This document shows, piece by piece, positions 9,004-62,052 of a stretch of DNA of 64,000 nt (within the stretch, counting starts at the first letter, position 1; each line of letters opens with the position of its first letter). Under the pieces are notes generated by a model. It did no database searches and had not been told where the DNA came from. It saw only the letters and a program-made list of their open reading frames with translations. The position numbers and the translations under genes were made by a program. The stretch comes from an uncultured Fibrobacterota bacterium (GTDB taxonomy: Bacteria; Fibrobacterota; OXYB2-FULL-49-7; CAYNYI01): assembly GCA_964401455.1 (NCBI GenBank), contig CAYNYI010000001.1:1245-65244 (forward strand), given 5' to 3'.

Positions 9004-10412
9004 TTTCCTGTTCTAATCCCTGATCCCGCTCCGATTCTGAGGAAAGGCGTCGATTCATCGTTTCCGGCTAAATTGCCCATGTTGAAATTATTCAATATTC
9101 CGGTGCTGATTTCAAGACTAAAACTATTAAAAAAAGTTTTTTCAAGAGACACCCATAAGTTTCGCTCCTTATAAACAGTCCCATAGGGCACCTTGTCTTC
9201 TCTGGTCTTTATCATTTTTTGAATTTCATATTCAATATTTCTTTCGCCCTTGTTCATAAACCAAAGACCAACCGAAGTCTTTAATCCATTTTTTAACAGA
9301 TATGAGCCTTCACCATACAAAAGCTCAGCGTCCGGTCCGAGGGGAGAACCCATAAAGCCCTTTTCATTTGTATAGGAAAGCCTCTGTCCGGCAGCATGAT
9401 TGTAAACAAAACTATTTATACGGCCACCTTCAAGAAATAGACTAAAGTCTCTTCCGGAAGTTTCAAAACCCACCATAAAAGCGACACTGTTCTGAATACT
9501 TTGCGAAACCTCATCAAATTCCACCTGTATGTCATCTACAAGAATTTCGGCGTAAATTTTAACCGAATCCGCCGGAATAAAAAAGAAATCCACGCTGCCG
9601 AAAGTATTGTCATAGGAGTTTCCCTCGCGCCAAACCGACATCTGTCCATAATGAAAAGGATAGAAAGGCATACAGTACTGCAGTTCGAAGTTTCTGTTTT
9701 CTCCTGCGTATATTACTGCCTGGCCAATTCCTATCCCATATCGTTTTTTTATAAACTCAAGTCTCGCCGCAGAATAAAATCTGTTTAAAAGCGTGATTTC
9801 TATAGAATCCGGTACCGAGCTGTGTTTATACTCATAAAGTTTTACCGCGTCATTTTCGGCAACACTGTTTATCTGGGTAAAAAAACCTTTCAAAAGAAAT
9901 GGGCCAAGTTTATATTCCTGCATTACCATGTTGAATCCCTGATGATAATCCGAAACAAGCAGCCCTCCGAGCTTCAGGGGGCCCCAGTTAAAACGGTCCT
10001 TTCCGAGTTTCAAACTCAAAACATTATTAATGTTCCAGGACATTAAAATGCGGTCCATATCTATCGAGAATGGAATTTCTTCATCTACATATGCCGCGTC
10101 GGCGGCATTGTCTTTCTGATCGGCCCGGCATCGGAAAAGAAAATCAATATCACCGAAATTAACGGAATCACGCGCCCAGAAAAGAAACCGGCTTTGCCCG
10201 GTATTGTTTTTTCTTATCAGATAATCCTCGTAAAACCTGAAATCGAAAACGTGATTATAAAGAACCGGAATTTCAAGACGGGTGTCATTATAAGGCGTAT
10301 CATCGAATTGCCTCCAGGAATGTTTCTCCAGATGTAGAGGAACAGAGGCGGCGGTAAAAAATACTGCGAAAAGAATGGCAGGTAAAAATAAACGCATGCC
10401 TAAATATAACAT
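9000..10412 (-). CDS. secreted/outer-membrane hypothetical protein, tentatively a Wzi-like capsule assembly protein
   Basis: Signal peptide (MRLFLPAILFAVFFTAASVP), about 470 aa mature and aromatic/Gly-rich in a beta-rich pattern. It lies in a polysaccharide locus, and its start overlaps the upstream gene by 4 bp. The Wzi assignment is by resemblance only. Confidence 0.35.
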   Translation of the reverse strand: MLYLGMRLFLPAILFAVFFTAASVPLHLEKHSWRQFDDTPYNDTRLEIPVLYNHVFDFRFYEDYLIRKNNTGQSRFLFWARDSVNFGDIDFLFRCRADQKDNAADAAYVDEEIPFSIDMDRILMSWNINNVLSLKLGKDRFNWGPLKLGGLLVSDYHQGFNMVMQEYKLGPFLLKGFFTQINSVAENDAVKLYEYKHSSVPDSIEITLLNRFYSAARLEFIKKRYGIGIGQAVIYAGENRNFELQYCMPFYPFHYGQMSVWREGNSYDNTFGSVDFFFIPADSVKIYAEILVDDIQVEFDEVSQSIQNSVAFMVGFETSGRDFSLFLEGGRINSFVYNHAAGQRLSYTNEKGFMGSPLGPDAELLYGEGSYLLKNGLKTSVGLWFMNKGERNIEYEIQKMIKTREDKVPYGTVYKERNLWVSLEKTFFNSFSLEISTGILNNFNMGNLAGNDESTPFLRIGAGSGIRTGN

Positions 10413-15945: not shown

Positions 15946-16944
15946 TTAAATATAATTTTTTTCGGCCATCCTTAAAGCCTTTTCTTTTACCGCCAGCCGC
16001 AGCTCATAAGGACTTTTTATTGTGACACAGTCCTTCATTGAAAAAATCCAGTCTATAAGGTTTTGATTTACTGAGCATTGCATTTTAAGACGGATACCCC
16101 CGTTTTTTTTCTCTTCTATTTCCTGTGAGCAATGCCAGTTTATTTCACTGATTTTTTCCGCTTCCGGACTGTCTATTTCAAGCTCAATTTTTTTTGTTTC
16201 AGAACCTGTCAGGCTTTCAAAAGGGTGATGAAAAAAATCTCTTACATCAAAATCGTCAGGAATAACAAAACTTCTATCGAGCATCTCCGGTTTTATTATT
16301 CGATGCAGAGAAAAAGTCTTTAGTTTCCAGCTCCTGAGACACCTGCCTATTACCTGCCATTCCTTGTTCTGATAAATAAGAGTGTACGGCTCTATTCTTC
16401 TTTCGGACTTTTCGGGCATACCTCCTTTTCTGTAGCGCATCTTTATTTTTTTTCTGTTCATTATACAGTCAAGAATTATACTGAATTCATTCCTGAGGCC
16501 TTTCACGGGCTCAAAGGGTCTGTAGAAACAAACACTCCTGCATTTTTCTCTCACATTTTCCATTGTTTCTCCGCTGATTTTTACCGGCTGCAGTAGTTTA
16601 TTGAATACAGGATGTATTTCTTCGGAAAAACCGGTCTGAGTGTATATTCTGAGAGCTTTTTCTGCAATGAGGACAAGCGCTATCTCATTTTCGTCGAGCC
16701 AGTTCATAGGCAGAGAAAAAGATTTATCTTTATATTCGTAACGCTTTTTTTGTTTGCTGTAGAAAATTTCCGCCCCGAGATTATAACGCATCAACTCCAG
16801 GTCCCGCTCAATTGACCTTTTTGAGACCTGAAAATGTTCTGCGGCCGATTCCGCGGAATAAAAAACACCTCTTTTGATCATATCATCAATTTCATAAATT
16901 CTGCATAAAGACATCCGGCTTATATTCATAATATCGCCTTTCAT
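15946..16944 (-). CDS. HTH + WYL-domain transcriptional regulator
   Basis: N-terminal DeoR-like HTH (AEHFQVSKRSIERDLELMR) followed by a WYL-like region (RKKIKMRYRKGG...RIEPYTLIYQNKEWQVIG). Length 332 aa; an alternative start lies at Met6. Confidence 0.6.
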   Translation of the reverse strand: MKGDIMNISRMSLCRIYEIDDMIKRGVFYSAESAAEHFQVSKRSIERDLELMRYNLGAEIFYSKQKKRYEYKDKSFSLPMNWLDENEIALVLIAEKALRIYTQTGFSEEIHPVFNKLLQPVKISGETMENVREKCRSVCFYRPFEPVKGLRNEFSIILDCIMNRKKIKMRYRKGGMPEKSERRIEPYTLIYQNKEWQVIGRCLRSWKLKTFSLHRIIKPEMLDRSFVIPDDFDVRDFFHHPFESLTGSETKKIELEIDSPEAEKISEINWHCSQEIEEKKNGGIRLKMQCSVNQNLIDWIFSMKDCVTIKSPYELRLAVKEKALRMAEKNYI

Positions 16945-17101: not shown

Positions 17102-17419
17102 TCAGCCGATCATATCCAGAAGAGTACCGGTCATTTCGTCCTGCTTGCGGATAACATCGGCATTTGCCTTGTAGGTCGTTTTATTGACACTCATTTCAGG
17201 CATCTCTTTGGCGAGCTCGGTATTTGACCTGCCGAACGGTTCGCTATTAGGTGTCCGGCGTATCGAAGCGATATCCGTCCCCGGATTAGTTTCCTTCTGG
17301 ATCGGGGTTCGTTCTTCAAAACCTTCGGTATTTATGTTGGCAACATCGTGCGCTGTAATATCATGACGAATATTGGCCGTTCGCATACCGGAGGAGGCTA
17401 TCGAATAAATGCTGTCCAT
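17102..17419 (-). CDS. flagellar basal-body rod protein FlgC-like (short, orphan)
   Basis: N-terminal rod motif IASSGMRTANIRHDITAHDVANINTEGFE (Flg_bb_rod consensus ...ANNIAN.NT.GFK). C-terminal motif SNTELAKEMPEMSVNKTTYKANADVIRKQDEMTGTLLDMIG resembles the FlgC C-terminus. Only 105 aa. Confidence 0.5.
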   Translation of the reverse strand: MDSIYSIASSGMRTANIRHDITAHDVANINTEGFEERTPIQKETNPGTDIASIRRTPNSEPFGRSNTELAKEMPEMSVNKTTYKANADVIRKQDEMTGTLLDMIG

Positions 17420-17471
17420 ACCTGTAATTTATAATTATATCCGCAATTATGCAACCCGGGAGCAAATAAAA

Positions 17472-18203
17472 TCATTTTTTCTTCAATCTGTCATATGCCT
17501 GATTAATCTCTCTGAATTTATTTTCAGCAAGCTCTCTGAACTCCGGGCCGAGATGAGAAACCTTGTCGGGATGGTATTTCTTGGCAAGCTCCCTGTAAGC
17601 TTTGTTGATCTCTTCTTTTGAAGCCGATTTCTTTAATCCAAGAATACCATAATCACCGTCTTCGGTAATTCCGTATGAAAGATAATGAGCGCGGATAGAA
17701 TTATACTGAACAGTCGTAACGCCCAGTTTCTTAGCAATGAACCTTATTGCTTTTTCTTCATCGGGAACAATCTCGCCATCGCTTTTAGAAACCTCAAAAA
17801 GCAGATGAACAAGCGTTAATATTTCGCTCGGTTCTGCATAATACGCTATCTGGGAGCACACATCTGAAATATCGAAATCACTTTTAACTATTTTCTTGAA
17901 CAGCTGCATCAGCTCTCCCGCTGTTTCATTGCCAAAAGTCCTTATCAAAAAAGACTTGACGGAATTTACTTCCGCGGAATGAACCTTTCCGTCTGACTTT
18001 GAAACATAAGCAAGACACATTAGCGAAGAAACCACAAAATCCCCTCCCTGCATTCGGGAGTGCCGGGAGGAACTCTTGGTATTCCCTATGCGTTTCGGGT
18101 TTCCTGAAAAAGAGTGGCCAATGAGCCCCCCGACAACGGCACCGATAGGCCCTCCCAGAATAAAACCGATTCCCGCACCCCAAAGCCAGCTGTTTTTCCC
18201 CAT
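17472..18203 (-). CDS. DjlA-like co-chaperone (TerB-like domain + C-terminal J domain)
   Basis: N-terminal glycine-zipper TM segment, a central TerB-like region and a C-terminal J domain with HPD ([15 protein letters not shown]...INQAYDRL). Confidence 0.65.
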
Positions 18204-21250: not shown

Positions 21251-24067
<2,817 letters not shown>

Positions 24068-24075
<8 letters not shown>

Positions 24076-41919: not shown

Positions 41920-43782
41920 TCACCTTTCCCGGGCTAATTTTGCAAGATAAACAAGCAATATAGATATGTCCGCAGGGGTTACACCCGAAATACCGGAAGC
42001 CCTCCCTATTGATTCGGGCCTCACCTTTTTCAGCTTTTCCCTCGCCTCAGTCAGAAGCCCCGGGACGGAATCATAGTCTATAGCTTCAGGTATTATTTTT
42101 TCCGCCTCTTTTTTCAGCTTTTCCGCCTCGGTTCTTTGCTTATTTATATATCCAAAATACTTTGTTTCAGCCTCGCCTATTAAAAGAATGTCTTCATCAC
42201 AGTTATTATTTAATATTTCAGAAGGAATATCGAAAATACGTATCTGCGGACGTTTTAAAAAGTCGAATATCTTTTTCCCCTCTTTCGGAGCAGACAGTCC
42301 TTTGGTGATTAAGATTTTTTCAGAGTCTTTAAGGCTTATGGCTGTTTTCTTAAGAGATTCCAGCAGATTTTCTACTTTTTTTCTCTTTTCCTTTACTGAA
42401 CCGGCACGCTCTTTTGATATGAGCCTTTGCTTTACTGCTTTATCCAGAAGTCTCAAGTCGGCATTGTCCTGCCTTAATAGAAGCCTGTATTCTGCTCTTG
42501 AGGTAAACATTCGATATGGCTCTGAAACACCTTTGGTGATAATATCGTCAATCAGAACCCCGATATAAGATTCTGCTCTGGTCATAATGAAAGGCGGCTC
42601 TCGAAGTATGCTGTTAGCGGCATTTGTTCCGGCAACAAGGCCCTGGGCGGCCGCTTCCTCATATCCGGAAGTTCCGTTCACCTGCCCGGCTAAAAAAAGC
42701 CGCTCTGCGATTTTTGACTCAAGAGTAAATTTAAGTTGTTCAGGATAAAAAAAGTCATATTCGATTGCATAGGCGTATTTACTAATTTGAGCACTCTCCA
42801 TGCCTGTTACAGATCTTACTATTTCTTTTTGAATTTCTTCAGGAAAAGAATTAGACAATCCGTTTATATAATAATTTTCTGAGGCCCAACCCTCAGGCTC
42901 AATAAAGATCTGATGTGTATCTTTGTCGGGAAAACGGACTATTTTGGTTTCGATCGAGGGGCAATAGCGTGGTCCGATTCCGGTGATTGTTCCGTCAAAA
43001 AGAGGAGACCTGCTCAGATTTTTTTCTATGATTTTTTTTGTTTCTATCGTTGTTGAAGTTACAAAACAGGGCTCCTGTTCCCGGGCTTTGTCCTTTTTCG
43101 TTATAAAAGAAAAATAAGGCGGAGGATTTTCACCATGTTGTATCTGAAGGGAATCGGTATTTACAGAGGACCTCTTAATTCTGGCCGGAGTGCCTGTTTT
43201 TAATCGACCTCTTTTTATCCCGAGAGAAAGAAGGCTTTCAGACAAGTTTTCATTAGATTTGTAATCAAGGCAACCGCCATCGGTCTTTTCTTTACCCTTG
43301 TGCATGATTCCGTTTATATATGTTCCGGCTGTAATTACAACAGCGCCACCCTCAACCTCTCCCCGGTTTTTTGTTATAACAACCCAGGACCCGGTATTTG
43401 ATGAAACTATTTTAATAGCATGGTCCTCCCAAATATCCAGGGTTTTATATTCCTGCAAATATCCAATCATAGTCTCGGTATATTTCACTCTGTCCATTTG
43501 CGCCCTGGGAGACCACACAGCAGGGCCTTTGCTTTTGTTAAGCATTCGGAACTGTATTCCGGCACGATCTGCCGCCTTAGCCATCAAACCCCCAAGCGCG
43601 TCTATTTCTCTGACAATAATTCCCTTGGCCAACCCCCCGATGGCGGGATTGCAAGGCATATGGCCCACAGATTTTATCTTGTGTGTAACAAGCAGAACAG
43701 AGACTCCTTTTCGGGCCGCAGCCGAAGCAGCCTCTATACCCGCGTGTCCTCCTCCAACAACAATTACATCGTAATGTTTCAC
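41920..43782 (-). CDS. mnmG: tRNA uridine 5-carboxymethylaminomethyl modification enzyme MnmG (GidA)
   Basis: MKHYDVIVVGGGHAGIEAASAAARKG FAD motif; 620 aa, GidA-like throughout. Confidence 0.9.
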   Translation of the reverse strand: MKHYDVIVVGGGHAGIEAASAAARKGVSVLLVTHKIKSVGHMPCNPAIGGLAKGIIVREIDALGGLMAKAADRAGIQFRMLNKSKGPAVWSPRAQMDRVKYTETMIGYLQEYKTLDIWEDHAIKIVSSNTGSWVVITKNRGEVEGGAVVITAGTYINGIMHKGKEKTDGGCLDYKSNENLSESLLSLGIKRGRLKTGTPARIKRSSVNTDSLQIQHGENPPPYFSFITKKDKAREQEPCFVTSTTIETKKIIEKNLSRSPLFDGTITGIGPRYCPSIETKIVRFPDKDTHQIFIEPEGWASENYYINGLSNSFPEEIQKEIVRSVTGMESAQISKYAYAIEYDFFYPEQLKFTLESKIAERLFLAGQVNGTSGYEEAAAQGLVAGTNAANSILREPPFIMTRAESYIGVLIDDIITKGVSEPYRMFTSRAEYRLLLRQDNADLRLLDKAVKQRLISKERAGSVKEKRKKVENLLESLKKTAISLKDSEKILITKGLSAPKEGKKIFDFLKRPQIRIFDIPSEILNNNCDEDILLIGEAETKYFGYINKQRTEAEKLKKEAEKIIPEAIDYDSVPGLLTEAREKLKKVRPESIGRASGISGVTPADISILLVYLAKLARER

Positions 43783-57763: not shown

Positions 57764-59680
57764 GTGTCCGGTGAACAATATCAGGCGAATTCCATAAAAG
57801 TACTAAAAGGTCTGGAGGCTGTACGTAAACGTCCGGCAATGTATATTGGAAGTACAAATACCCGGGGGCTTCATCACCTTGTTTTTGAGGTTATAGACAA
57901 TTCAATAGATGAAGCGATGGCCGGGCATTGTGACAAAATAGACGTTATTATTCTTAAAGATGAATCTATTTCTGTCAGGGACAACGGCAGAGGAATACCT
58001 ACGGATTATCATGAAGGTGAAAAGAAAAGCGCACTTGAAGTGGCGCTTACGACACTTCATGCCGGAGGCAAGTTTGATGCTGACAGTTATAAAGTATCCG
58101 GCGGTCTTCATGGTGTAGGGGTTTCATGTGTAAATGCTTTGAGTATCTGGACCAAGGTAAAAGTTTTCAGGGACGGCAAAACACATGAACAAAGCTATAA
58201 AAGAGGTTTTCCTGACGGGCCTCTCAAGGTTACAGGAGAAACAAAAGAAACAGGTACGCTTGTAACTTTTAAGCCGGATCATGAAATTTTTGAAGAAACT
58301 ATTTTTAATTTTGACACTCTTTCCGCCAGACTCAGAGAGCTTGCTTTTCTGAATAAGGGAATAAGGATAACGATTATTGATGAGCGTAAAGAAGATCACA
58401 GACACTCTTTTTATTATCCGGGTGGAATAGCTTCTTTTGTTGAATATCTTAACGAGGATATTGTCGTTCTTCATAAACCACCGATTTATTTCCGGAACGA
58501 AGGGGAAAATTTTGATCTTGAAATATCAATACAATACAACGATTCTTATAAGGACAAAGTTTTTTCGTTTGTTAACAATATTAATACAGTTGACGGAGGA
58601 ACGCATCTTGCCGGGTTTAGAAGCTCCCTTACCCGTACTATAAACAATTATGCCAAAATAAACAACATGCTAAAAGGCAAGAACCCGGTTACAATTACGG
58701 GTGTTGATATATAAGAAGGCCTTACTTCTGTTATAAGCATAAAAATATCGAATCCCCAGTTTGAAGGACAGACAAAACATAAACTTGGAAATCCTGAGGT
58801 GAAAGGAATTGTCGAAAGCAGCCTCAACGAAAAACTGGGAATTTTTCTTGAAGAAAACCCGCCAGTCGCTAAAAAAATAATTGATAAATGTATAGGCGCC
58901 GCGACAGCGAGAGAGGCCGCAAGAAAAGCAAAACAGCTTTCCAGAAGAAAAAACTTTCTTGAGACGGGCAGCCTTCCCGGTAAACTTGCCGACTGCTCAA
59001 GCAAAGACAGAACAATTTGTGAGATATTCATTGTTGAGGGGGACTCTGCGGGCGGTTCTGCCAAGATGGGTAGAGACCGGTCTTTTCAGGCTATACTTCC
59101 TCTTCGCGGAAAAATTCTTAATGTTGAAAAAAAGAGACTTGATAAAATTCTTTCGAGCGAAGAAATAAAAGTTTTAATATCTGCTATCGGAACGGGGATC
59201 GGCGATGATGAATTTGATATGGAAAAGAGAAGATATGATAAAATTATCATAATGACCGACGCAGATGTTGACGGGGCGCATATACGGACATTATTAATGA
59301 CTTTTTTCTTCAGATATATGGAAAAGCTCATTACAGACGGACACTTATATATTGCTCAACCACCTTTATATAAAATCAAACAAGGTAAAAGAGAGGTATA
59401 TGCGTTTAGCGACGAAGAAAAAAACAGGCTTGTAAAAGAATTAGATCAGTCTAAAAATCAAAAAGTTTCTATACAGAGATATAAAGGTCTTGGTGAAATG
59501 AACCCGGAACAGCTCGCAACAACAACCATGGAACCAGACAGAAGAATTCTTCTTCAGGTTACTCTTGAGGATGCAGTCGAAGCCGATAAAATTTTTACTA
59601 AACTTATGGGTGACGAAGTTGAGCCGAGAAGAAAATTTATAGAGGACCATGCCCATACTGTTAAGGAGCTTGATGTCTGA
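57764..59680 (+). pseudogene. gyrB: DNA gyrase subunit B, interrupted by an in-frame TAA as sequenced
   Basis: Both halves are in one frame, so there is no frameshift. The reading ...[37 protein letters not shown]... places a TAA at 58712-58714, where GyrB homologues have Arg (TGEDVREGL). Track ORF 1 ends at the stop and ORF 2 restarts at GTG 58799. ATPase motifs and TOPRIM motifs (EGDSAGGS; DADVDGAHI) are intact. Confidence 0.85.
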
Positions 59681-59700: not shown

Positions 59701-59730
59701 AAAAAAAGGACCCTTAGGGTCCTTTTTTTA
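59701..59730. terminator. bidirectional rho-independent terminator between convergent gyrB and the T9SS-cargo gene
   Basis: AAAAAAA GGACCC tta GGGTCC TTTTTTT: a perfect 6-bp GC stem flanked by an A-run and a T-run. Confidence 0.75.
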
Positions 59731-62052
59731 TTTCTGCATTAAAATTTTTTTTAAAACAGATTTTTCTTTGTTCTGAAATTTCGCTATGTAAATTCCGGAA
59801 GACATTCCTTCTGCAGTCCATGTAAAAGAGTATGGTATCTTGTTAGGAACAAAAGTTTTTAAAATTCTGCCTTTTGTGTTCATAATATTTATTCTTGAAT
59901 CAGGAGCATTAATATCCTTACCGGAAACTATTATTTTTACCGATGGGTTAAAAGGATTCGGAAATGCACTTATTGTAACTTCTTCTTCAGGATTTACAGA
60001 ATTATCTTTGCTTATTGAAAGCACAGAACTGTTCGGTACAGATAATTCAATATATTTGTTTTTTACTGTACCTGTAATATCTAAGCTTCTTTCGGAAGCC
60101 GAAGCAGCCTGGAATTCATAGGTTTTTTCCATTCCGTTTTCTTCATAACAGTATCGAACATTTACAGGGTCGTTAAAGGAATTCTGCTCCTGGTAGGCAG
60201 CGTGTATCATAACTTCGTTTACCGCATGAGAGTTTCCATGAAATTTTATAAAAAACTCATTGCCGTAACCGTTTAAAATACCGGTTGTATCTCTGTACTG
60301 CAGCCAATGTCTTGTCCAGGAAGGGCTTTTAACAAAATCATATGCCAGAGAGTAAGAGTTGCCGTCGTTTGAGACTGAAATATTATAGTCCTTTTCCGAT
60401 GTCCATGGAAGAACGGAATAAGAAGCCGCCGTATTGAACCACTTGAACGAAGAGTTTTCCGGAGCCTCAATTTTAAATGTTATGTCACCGTAAACCTTTT
60501 CCATCAAATCGTATGGTTTATATGTTCCGGAAAATGATTCTATCATCGGGTTAGTGTGCGCTGAATCATTGAGTATAACCGGATATCTGACAGGAACAGT
60601 ATTCATTCCTTTGACATCTCCGTTTAGGTACCCGATTGTATTCGTTCCGGTTTTCAGTCTTGGCAGAGACATCGGGGCAACGGACAACCATGTTTCTGTG
60701 TTGAAAGAATTAAGCCCTGCCTGCCCCGCTGTTCCGACAAACGAAAATTTAACTAAATATTCATACATTCCGTAACACTCGGATGTAAGGTCCTCGGAAT
60801 TAGAAAGGTCCGCACCCGACGCCAGCTCAGTCCATGAATGACCGAAATTTTTACTGAACTGCACAGTGGTATTACCTGATGTTTGATAGCTGAGCACGAC
60901 TCCGTCATGATAGCCGTTTAGATCGGCAAGATCTGCGCCCGGTTTTCCAATAAACAGATATGGAGAATATGTCCGAAAAATTATAAACCCTGAGCCGTCA
61001 TTTTCAAGAACAGGGCCTTCTGTCCCAAAAACGATATTGCTGTCCCTGAATATTCCGTCAGAATAATCGCTCTCGTAGCTTAGATCCGGTTGATACTTAA
61101 GAACACCTATTCCGGTAGTGTTAACGCTTCCTCCGTTTTCCGGGGCAACCCATGGTTTGGGGCCGTAAGGTTCTTTGTTGTGGATTTCTTCGAGCTCCTG
61201 AGCGCGCGCCGCCCAATAAGAGTTTTCATTTTCTGTATCCAGCCGCTCTCTTATCATAAAAACCCTTTGGCTGTCCGATTGCCAATACCTGCGCAGAGAC
61301 TCGCCTCTCCTCAGAACAAAGTCCATTGTGTGACAGGTATACCATTGTTTATTATATCTTTCATAATAAGGAGGATTATTGTTCCTTTTCTGATAAGATG
61401 TGTCCGCAAAATTTTTAAACATTTCGAGAGTTATCATTCCCACGTCCTTGAGGGAATCAGGATAAGGAAAATACGGAAAAATACCATGTGGATTGTTGTC
61501 CATAATTGACGGGTTTTCTCCAATCTCAAGCCAGGAAGGAATATGACCGTCCGCCTCTTTTACATAGCCTCTTTGTTCCGGATCAAAATAATGCCAGTCT
61601 CCGTCATAGTGGACCTCAATCATTGTATGCCAGCTGCCGTATCCTCCGCAAACCAGAGAATCGAACATTCCTGTTGCTTCGAGCATTCCGGCGTATGCGG
61701 GGTTTACATGAAAACAAAGGCCGTATCCATATGAGTTGAAAAGTTCTATCGGGTCTCTAATCAGTAAATGAGAAACTCTTTCGTTGCTGCTATAGTCGCT
61801 CTTATTGTCAACCCAGCGGTTTTCTTCACGGGCATCAGCAAAATGATAAAAACCGGTAACGGAATCAGCAAAGTAATTATGAACAGCTTCCGCAAGCTCC
61901 TGACCGGTTTTACCGCTGAAGCCGGGGTGTTCCAGAAAATTTTGGTAATCTCCGCTTAAATCGGCAGTATGTTGCGTAAGAATTTTCGGCGAGTAGGCTT
62001 TCGAAAAAACCTGAAACGAAAAAATCAATATCAAAATTATAAATGCTCTCAT
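59728..62052 (-). CDS. secreted transglutaminase-like protein with C-terminal T9SS (Por_Secre_tail-type) sorting domain
   Basis: Signal peptide (MRAFIILILIFSFQVFSKA). Cys/His/Asp core (GLCFHVNPAYAG...GYGSWHTMIEVHYDGDWHYFDPE). C-terminal ~80 aa ISAFPNPFNPSVKI...SGIYIAKF resembles the T9SS type A CTD. Confidence 0.65.
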   Translation of the reverse strand: MRAFIILILIFSFQVFSKAYSPKILTQHTADLSGDYQNFLEHPGFSGKTGQELAEAVHNYFADSVTGFYHFADAREENRWVDNKSDYSSNERVSHLLIRDPIELFNSYGYGLCFHVNPAYAGMLEATGMFDSLVCGGYGSWHTMIEVHYDGDWHYFDPEQRGYVKEADGHIPSWLEIGENPSIMDNNPHGIFPYFPYPDSLKDVGMITLEMFKNFADTSYQKRNNNPPYYERYNKQWYTCHTMDFVLRRGESLRRYWQSDSQRVFMIRERLDTENENSYWAARAQELEEIHNKEPYGPKPWVAPENGGSVNTTGIGVLKYQPDLSYESDYSDGIFRDSNIVFGTEGPVLENDGSGFIIFRTYSPYLFIGKPGADLADLNGYHDGVVLSYQTSGNTTVQFSKNFGHSWTELASGADLSNSEDLTSECYGMYEYLVKFSFVGTAGQAGLNSFNTETWLSVAPMSLPRLKTGTNTIGYLNGDVKGMNTVPVRYPVILNDSAHTNPMIESFSGTYKPYDLMEKVYGDITFKIEAPENSSFKWFNTAASYSVLPWTSEKDYNISVSNDGNSYSLAYDFVKSPSWTRHWLQYRDTTGILNGYGNEFFIKFHGNSHAVNEVMIHAAYQEQNSFNDPVNVRYCYEENGMEKTYEFQAASASERSLDITGTVKNKYIELSVPNSSVLSISKDNSVNPEEEVTISAFPNPFNPSVKIIVSGKDINAPDSRINIMNTKGRILKTFVPNKIPYSFTWTAEGMSSGIYIAKFQNKEKSVLKKILMQK

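Follow-up and report, generated by a model that had tools for sequence, protein, structure and literature searches.

The 64,000-nucleotide stretch analysed here (hereafter the window) comes from a metagenome-assembled genome (MAG) of an uncultured Fibrobacterota bacterium. At 17102..17419, on the minus strand, it carries an open reading frame (ORF) with an ATG start that codes for a 105-aa protein of the flagellar axial family, built of the D0 part and a beta-hairpin only and lacking the D1 domain. The protein belongs to a widespread, uncharacterised family of D1-less, stand-alone paralogues of FlgG/FlgF/FlgE-type proteins, referred to below as the mini family. On balance we lean, if not strongly, towards the view that the mini protein is an additional axial paralogue that serves in structure or assembly.

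The first-pass annotation of the window had recognised in this ORF both terminal signatures of flagellar rod proteins and had described a miniaturised gene of FlgC size. Both points were borne out by the 105-aa length, the ATG start and the positions of the motifs: ANINTEGF at residues 27-34, SNTELAKEM at 65-73, YKANADVI at 83-90 and MTGTLLDMI at 96-104. With the two Pfam models that had been proposed for confirmation, Flg_bbr_C (PF06429) exceeded its cut-off of 23 with 27.2 bits (E 2.8e-6, residues 64-103), and Flg_bb_rod (PF00460) reached 18.8 bits, just under its cut-off of 20.7 (E 1.7e-3, residues 7-34). A precomputed PF00460 match is present in most family members. FliE (PF02049) was absent among the Pfam matches of the window protein at E<=1. 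When the family profile was compared with known axial proteins, it matched the N-termini of FlgG and FlgE with independent E-values of 5e-10 and 1e-8, the termini of Salmonella FlgE and FlgG with E ~1e-20, and FlgC, in a single stretch, with 6e-15. At the level of sequence the resemblance to axial proteins is far beyond chance.

NCBIfam models gave weak matches only, to the ends of FlgE, FlgK, FlgG, FlgC, FlgF and FlgB, and all of these were far under the cut-offs: 28.8 bits against 102.1 for FlgC (TIGR01395), 20.6 against 59.05 for FlgB (TIGR01396), 24.4 against 178.5 for FlgF (TIGR02490), 33.9 against 252.75 for FlgG (TIGR02488) and 23.3 against 70.25 for the FlgEFG model (TIGR03506). The hidden Markov model (HMM) of the family itself gave 135 bits with the window protein. 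No curated NCBIfam or Pfam model specific to the mini family was found.

The AlphaFold (AF2) model of the protein (predicted local distance difference test, pLDDT, 95.2) shows two D0 helices, one at either terminus, linked by a beta-hairpin and with no D1, and in it the two termini form the D0 coiled-coil fold. The N-terminal helix comprises residues 2-27 (17339..17416, minus strand, as for the features that follow) and runs into the ANINTEGF motif, of which A27, N28 and T31 are invariant or nearly so among 121 family members. The hairpin covers residues 36-56 (17252..17314), with modelled strands at 36-43 and 48-56; its counterpart in FlgC/F/G/E is found in the Dc or start-of-D1 strands, which include the 'G-x-R-V-x-x-I' strand, and G47 is nearly invariant in the same 121 members. 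The C-terminal helix, residues 69-104 (17108..17215), carries the SNTELAKEM...YKANADVI...DEMTGTLLD signature matched by Flg_bbr_C and aligns with the C-terminus of FlgE. Both helices and the central G-x-R-V strand are conserved across the family. According to the model, the mini protein is an axial-protein core without the D1 domain.

Structural comparison returned FlgE, FlgC, FlgK, FlgF and FlgB as the top matches, and all 105 residues could be superposed on FlgC chain 7bin_V with a root-mean-square deviation of 1.9 A. Of the two proteins suggested earlier for structural comparison, FlgC was matched and FliE was absent among the fold matches. The label 'FlgC-like' given in the first-pass annotation is appropriate for size and fold only, as in sequence FlgE/F/G is the nearer subfamily. 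In comparison with FlgC (134 aa; Salmonella structures 7cg0 and 7bin), it is about 30 aa shorter, keeps the beta-hairpin and lacks the segment between the hairpin and the C-terminal helix; its C-terminus is of the FlgE/F/G type instead (...QDEM.G.LLD). FlgB is a weaker sequence match, and the FlgB-type C-terminus is absent from the window protein. The closest full-length relatives in sequence are rod proteins of the FlgG/FlgF type (~235-260 aa), with which the mini protein is collinear at both termini and in the hairpin strand; the entire D1 (~130 aa) is missing from it. The near-complete central deletion noticed earlier is thus real when the measure is FlgF/G/E, where the whole D1 is gone, but not when it is FlgC.

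The gene had been described as an orphan, and this did not hold, as hundreds of homologues of the same length exist. The window protein is 100% identical to P0001, from a Fibrobacterota MAG. A word-index search gave one homologue of 52% identity, in a Chitinivibrionales MAG, and when 1.84 billion representatives were searched exhaustively with an HMM, 1,896 matched at E<=1e-3; the best 150 of these are mostly 95-122 aa long and match in a single end-to-end stretch. At 50% identity the family falls into over 120 clusters; a profile made from 121 members retrieved, at 90% identity, 1,567 clusters or more (E<=1e-8), mostly of 105-117 aa. With 22 members the window protein shares 41-53% identity. 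The family is spread over Fibrobacterota-like, Desulfobacterota and Deferribacterota lineages. Database labels are generic: 'FlgC', 'FlgE' or 'FlgG' (JGI) and 'flagellar basal body rod C-terminal domain-containing protein' (NCBI). A literature search for the mini family under several names found no paper.

Pairwise ratios of non-synonymous to synonymous substitution (dN/dS) were 0.13 (L003 against L004), 0.16 (the window gene against L062) and 0.23 (a further pair). Because the family is large and uniform in length, its helices and strand are conserved and dN/dS lies at 0.13-0.23, the mini family is functional and under purifying selection and is not debris.

In sequence the family leans to FlgE/F/G. 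The TIGR03506 FlgEFG model is matched by 117 of the 121 members, and the first matches of the exhaustive search that are not minis are proteins of ~235 aa in the NCBIfam FlgEFG subfamily, whose best equivalogs are FlgG and FlgF. In a distance tree long proteins are interspersed among the minis; P0144 (238 aa), for example, is nearest to P0031 (108 aa). This pattern could reflect repeated loss of D1 or co-evolution of D0 segments within lineages. Two alignments made for scanning contigs had to be set aside. One, A3, proved too generic as a pattern and mostly retrieved canonical rod genes (true minis only at L007 and L008; L009 is FlgB); the other, A4, which covered the junction only, was too variable for use. 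A phage or plasmid origin was likewise rejected, as no tblastn matches were obtained in plasmids or phages and none was confirmed in viral contigs.

Family members are usually stand-alone genes, and so is the window gene, which stands, as had been noted at the outset, between genes for a regulator with WYL and WCX domains (15946-16944) and for a DjlA-like protein with TerB and DnaJ domains (17472-18203), both assigned by Pfam. The latter is 52 nt upstream of the mini gene. FlgC is usually encoded in a flgB-flgC-fliE neighbourhood; the window gene has neither flgB nor fliE beside it. Scanning the 64 kb with the family HMM revealed no second axial-family ORF, and tblastn with the relatives' FlgF, FlgB, flagellin, FlgL, CheR, CheB and FliS gave no match in the window. 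In ~10 kb past the end of the window no flagellar genes were seen.

Scanning metagenomes with the six nearest sequences yielded 49 further loci, all with full-length minis of 38-55% identity. Flagellar or chemotaxis genes are present on the same contig in eight of them. In L085 the next gene on the same strand, 24 nt downstream of the mini gene, is flgF (TIGR02490, 184.9 bits against a cut-off of 178.5). In L096 a flagellin gene and a gene for a 493-aa FlgL-like protein directly adjoin the mini gene; mnmG and rnpA are close by, and this is an origin-type region, as is the window. FlgL (155.5 bits against 127.2) and flagellin are encoded 1.5-3 kb off in L081 and L082, flagellins in L087 and L070 (the latter with a weak FliS-like match in addition), FlgB (82 bits against 59) 8.5 kb off in L066, and CheR and CheB in L089, where FISUMP-domain proteins fit a Fibrobacterota origin.

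A further family member, L063, is from Pseudodesulfovibrio, as its GcvPB clusters at >=90% identity with that of P. mercurii and relatives. Pseudodesulfovibrio is described as motile by a polar flagellum (PMC11678503). For Fibrobacterota, flagella have been inferred to be an ancestral trait that only Fibrobacteraceae lost (PMC4704652). Taken together with the eight loci, these data place the mini family, by gene content, in flagellated bacteria and beside canonical flagellar genes. It had been proposed that a complete flagellar regulon with a normal flgBC-fliE locus elsewhere would mark the window gene as a simple paralogue or fragment. Since the contigs of relatives carry FlgF, FlgB, FlgL, flagellin and CheR/CheB, and a member occurs in Pseudodesulfovibrio, this rule makes the mini family a putative paralogue in flagellated bacteria.

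Clustering of neighbours over the 49 loci revealed only synteny at the level of lineages, with tsaE-folK in 28 related loci and also grpE-dnaK-dnaJ. A ~180-aa protein without a Pfam or NCBIfam family is encoded next to the mini gene in L058 (10387-10929, minus strand) and L059 (9209-9748, minus strand) only; the two copies are 51% identical and differ in orientation. In three loci of one metagenome (L083, L085 and L089), near-alike minis beginning MNISPSASAMQASSLR..., compared over the first 70 residues, occur in three different neighbourhoods, and this small gene seems to relocate often. The canonical flgB gene of L066 (1045-1470, minus strand) is itself isolated, among a spoVG-like gene and unrelated genes and with no flgC or fliE beside it; dispersed flagellar genes may therefore be normal in that lineage.

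Analysis of upstream regions identified a perfect TATAAT -10-like box (17434..17439, minus strand) within GATATAATTA, 14 nt before the ATG of the window gene, which probably has its own promoter and does not depend on mere read-through from the DjlA-like gene. The same signal recurs in relatives: in L066-L114 and the window (17426-17441) the family genes are immediately preceded by a conserved -10-like box, which reads CTATATTA or GGTATAATTA. Of 49 family genes, 31 have TATAATTA or CTATATTA within 60 nt upstream; of 640 other ORFs in these loci, 25 do (Fisher p 5e-26, a value that overstates the significance because related loci are non-independent). As the box ends 6-7 nt ahead of the start codon in 22 loci, leaderless mRNA is predicted there. 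Two related genomes, Desulfobacterota-like, have a conserved sigma54-like element instead, CGGCACGATCCTTGTA, upstream of 117-aa members (L003, ~9877-9892; L004, ~9884-9899), and HDOD, PilZ and sigma54-activator genes are close by.

How an extra axial paralogue of this kind might act can be outlined as follows. The mini gene would be transcribed from its own sigma70-type promoter, and its product would be exported by the flagellar type III apparatus, as other axial proteins are. In rod, hook and junction the inner tube is made of the two D0 helices of axial proteins. Given the conserved D0 interface, the mini protein would be expected to use its D0 coiled coil for docking, either within this tube or on it. 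Because a subunit without D1 fits only where an outer layer is not needed, possible sites are the proximal rod inside the MS ring, at the level of FliE, FlgB and FlgC, or a place as a transient adaptor or cap. FliE (~100 aa), the adaptor between rod and export gate, is similar in size to the mini protein. Judging from published Salmonella rod structures, FliE sits deep in the basal body at a place that requires no outer domain, and a D1-less subunit could occupy a site of this type; FliE itself is without the ANxNT and SNxDL motifs. Needle and inner-rod proteins of injectisomes (the PrgI/PrgJ class) are helical hairpins of ~80-100 aa and assemble into tubes that have no outer domains; their likeness to the mini protein is by analogy only.

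Several observations weigh against a role in the flagellar axis. In the first ten contexts inspected the gene is alone among unrelated neighbours, and no flagellar Pfam family turned up in the surrounding 10 kb. Counted by flagellar genes, nine of these ten contexts and 41 of the 49 metagenome contexts have none within that distance. Sigma28-like sites (<=3 mismatches) are not enriched upstream of family genes (13/49, as compared with 122/635 control ORFs). An FxxxPhi motif resembling the gate-recognition signal is absent downstream of NTxGF in all but two of 116 members; as the long relatives seldom have it either, its absence is not diagnostic. The source MAG was covered over the window and ~10 kb, and its flagellar setting rests on the relatives. 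Finally, MnmG of the window (41920-43782) has no match above 52% identity in a collection of 5.8 billion proteins, which makes the phylum-level inference weak. Its best named matches are from Latescibacterota, KSB1, Ignavibacteria and Nitrospirota. Because of this low identity the source MAG is, by the measure of this protein, a very deep-branching lineage.

Among other explanations, the one that survives best, although we regard it as unlikely, is that of a regulatory decoy or 'poison subunit'. A D0-only protein would bind growing axial structures, or rod and hook subunits not yet assembled, and so block or time assembly. A subunit lacking D1 is unable to form the outer layer, and the strong -10 box of its own, often of the leaderless type, places the gene by consensus outside the flagellar transcriptional hierarchy; the sigma54-like element with its HDOD, PilZ and sigma54-activator neighbours in the two Desulfobacterota-like genomes would also suit a regulator. 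However, we know of no precedent for a D0-only poison subunit, conservation over the whole D0 interface suits a structural role equally well, and no regulator is consistently linked to the family.

Use outside the flagellum is improbable. This idea, already raised in the first-pass annotation, supposes that a rod-like polymerising module was kept in a host without flagella for another export or assembly system. It agrees with the lack of linkage of most copies to flagellar genes, with a substrate of type IX secretion system (T9SS) type encoded in the window, and with the view of the source MAG, limited to the window and ~10 kb and containing no flagellar genes. No positive evidence emerged for it, however: no other secretion genes are linked to family members, and no phage or plasmid copies exist among those recovered.

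We give slightly less credit still to the possibility that the mini protein is the true FlgC (or FlgB) orthologue of its lineage, miniaturised in a genome with scattered flagellar genes. The best Foldseek matches are indeed FlgC chains, with superposition over the full length, and the lone flgB of L066 suggests that isolation is not unusual in that lineage. On the other hand, the FlgC and FlgB models scored far below their cut-offs, the family matches the termini of FlgE/F/G/K better, and a member is present in Pseudodesulfovibrio, which is expected to have canonical flgBC of its own.

That the gene is a relic of a lost flagellum, a pseudogene decaying after an internal deletion, was suggested earlier on the basis of a small, isolated gene and might seem in keeping with other damaged genes of this MAG (gyrB with an in-frame stop, ligA with a frameshift), but is essentially refuted by a length and architecture shared with hundreds of homologues, by the purifying selection, by the confidently predicted fold (pLDDT 95) and by the conserved promoter box.

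The remainder of the window is an origin region, with dnaA, dnaN, recF, gyrB, yidC, mnmE, mnmG, rsmG and parAB identified by reading the translations by eye. An Rfam scan of the window gave no match. The mini gene has a G+C content of 48.4% (0.53 at third codon positions), compared with 39.3% for the window, and is in the top 2% among 318-nt windows, which may reflect composition bias or past transfer. The gyrB gene (57764-59680) contains a single in-frame TAA near 58715-58717, at a conserved Arg position. As a contig of assembly GCA_046542585.1 begins within gyrB, an assembly join or a sequencing error is likely here, rather than a true pseudogene. In ligA, for the NAD-dependent DNA ligase (22100-24075), a frameshift near 23458-23461, just upstream of the NPRNAAAGS motif, results in ORFs of 205 aa and 453 aa; it stems from an indel error or marks a pseudogene. 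The T9SS-type substrate is a 774-aa protein with a C-terminal sorting domain (Por_Secre_tail), encoded at 59728-62052 on the minus strand. Past the window end (L064) are genes for a TPR/SLH protein and for a 1,519-aa protein of CarboxypepD_reg repeats with a faint FlgD_ig match.

Rod composition (FliE, FlgB, FlgC, FlgF and FlgG) is treated as settled, a view based on Salmonella. Proteins of the mini family (~105-117 aa) may be a structural or assembly component that has been overlooked in non-model flagella, or else assembly regulators of a new kind, and they show how little of an axial protein suffices to keep the D0 interface. A bolder proposal, which we put forward only tentatively and think rather doubtful, is that they form an unrecognised and widespread axial class of D0 plus hairpin, encoded apart from flagellar operons under its own, often leaderless-type promoter. 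Such a class would be a sixth rod-type component, that is a minor proximal-rod subunit, an adaptor or a cap, or a regulator that terminates the chain during rod assembly. As members occur in cultivable Pseudodesulfovibrio, experimental testing of these roles is feasible.
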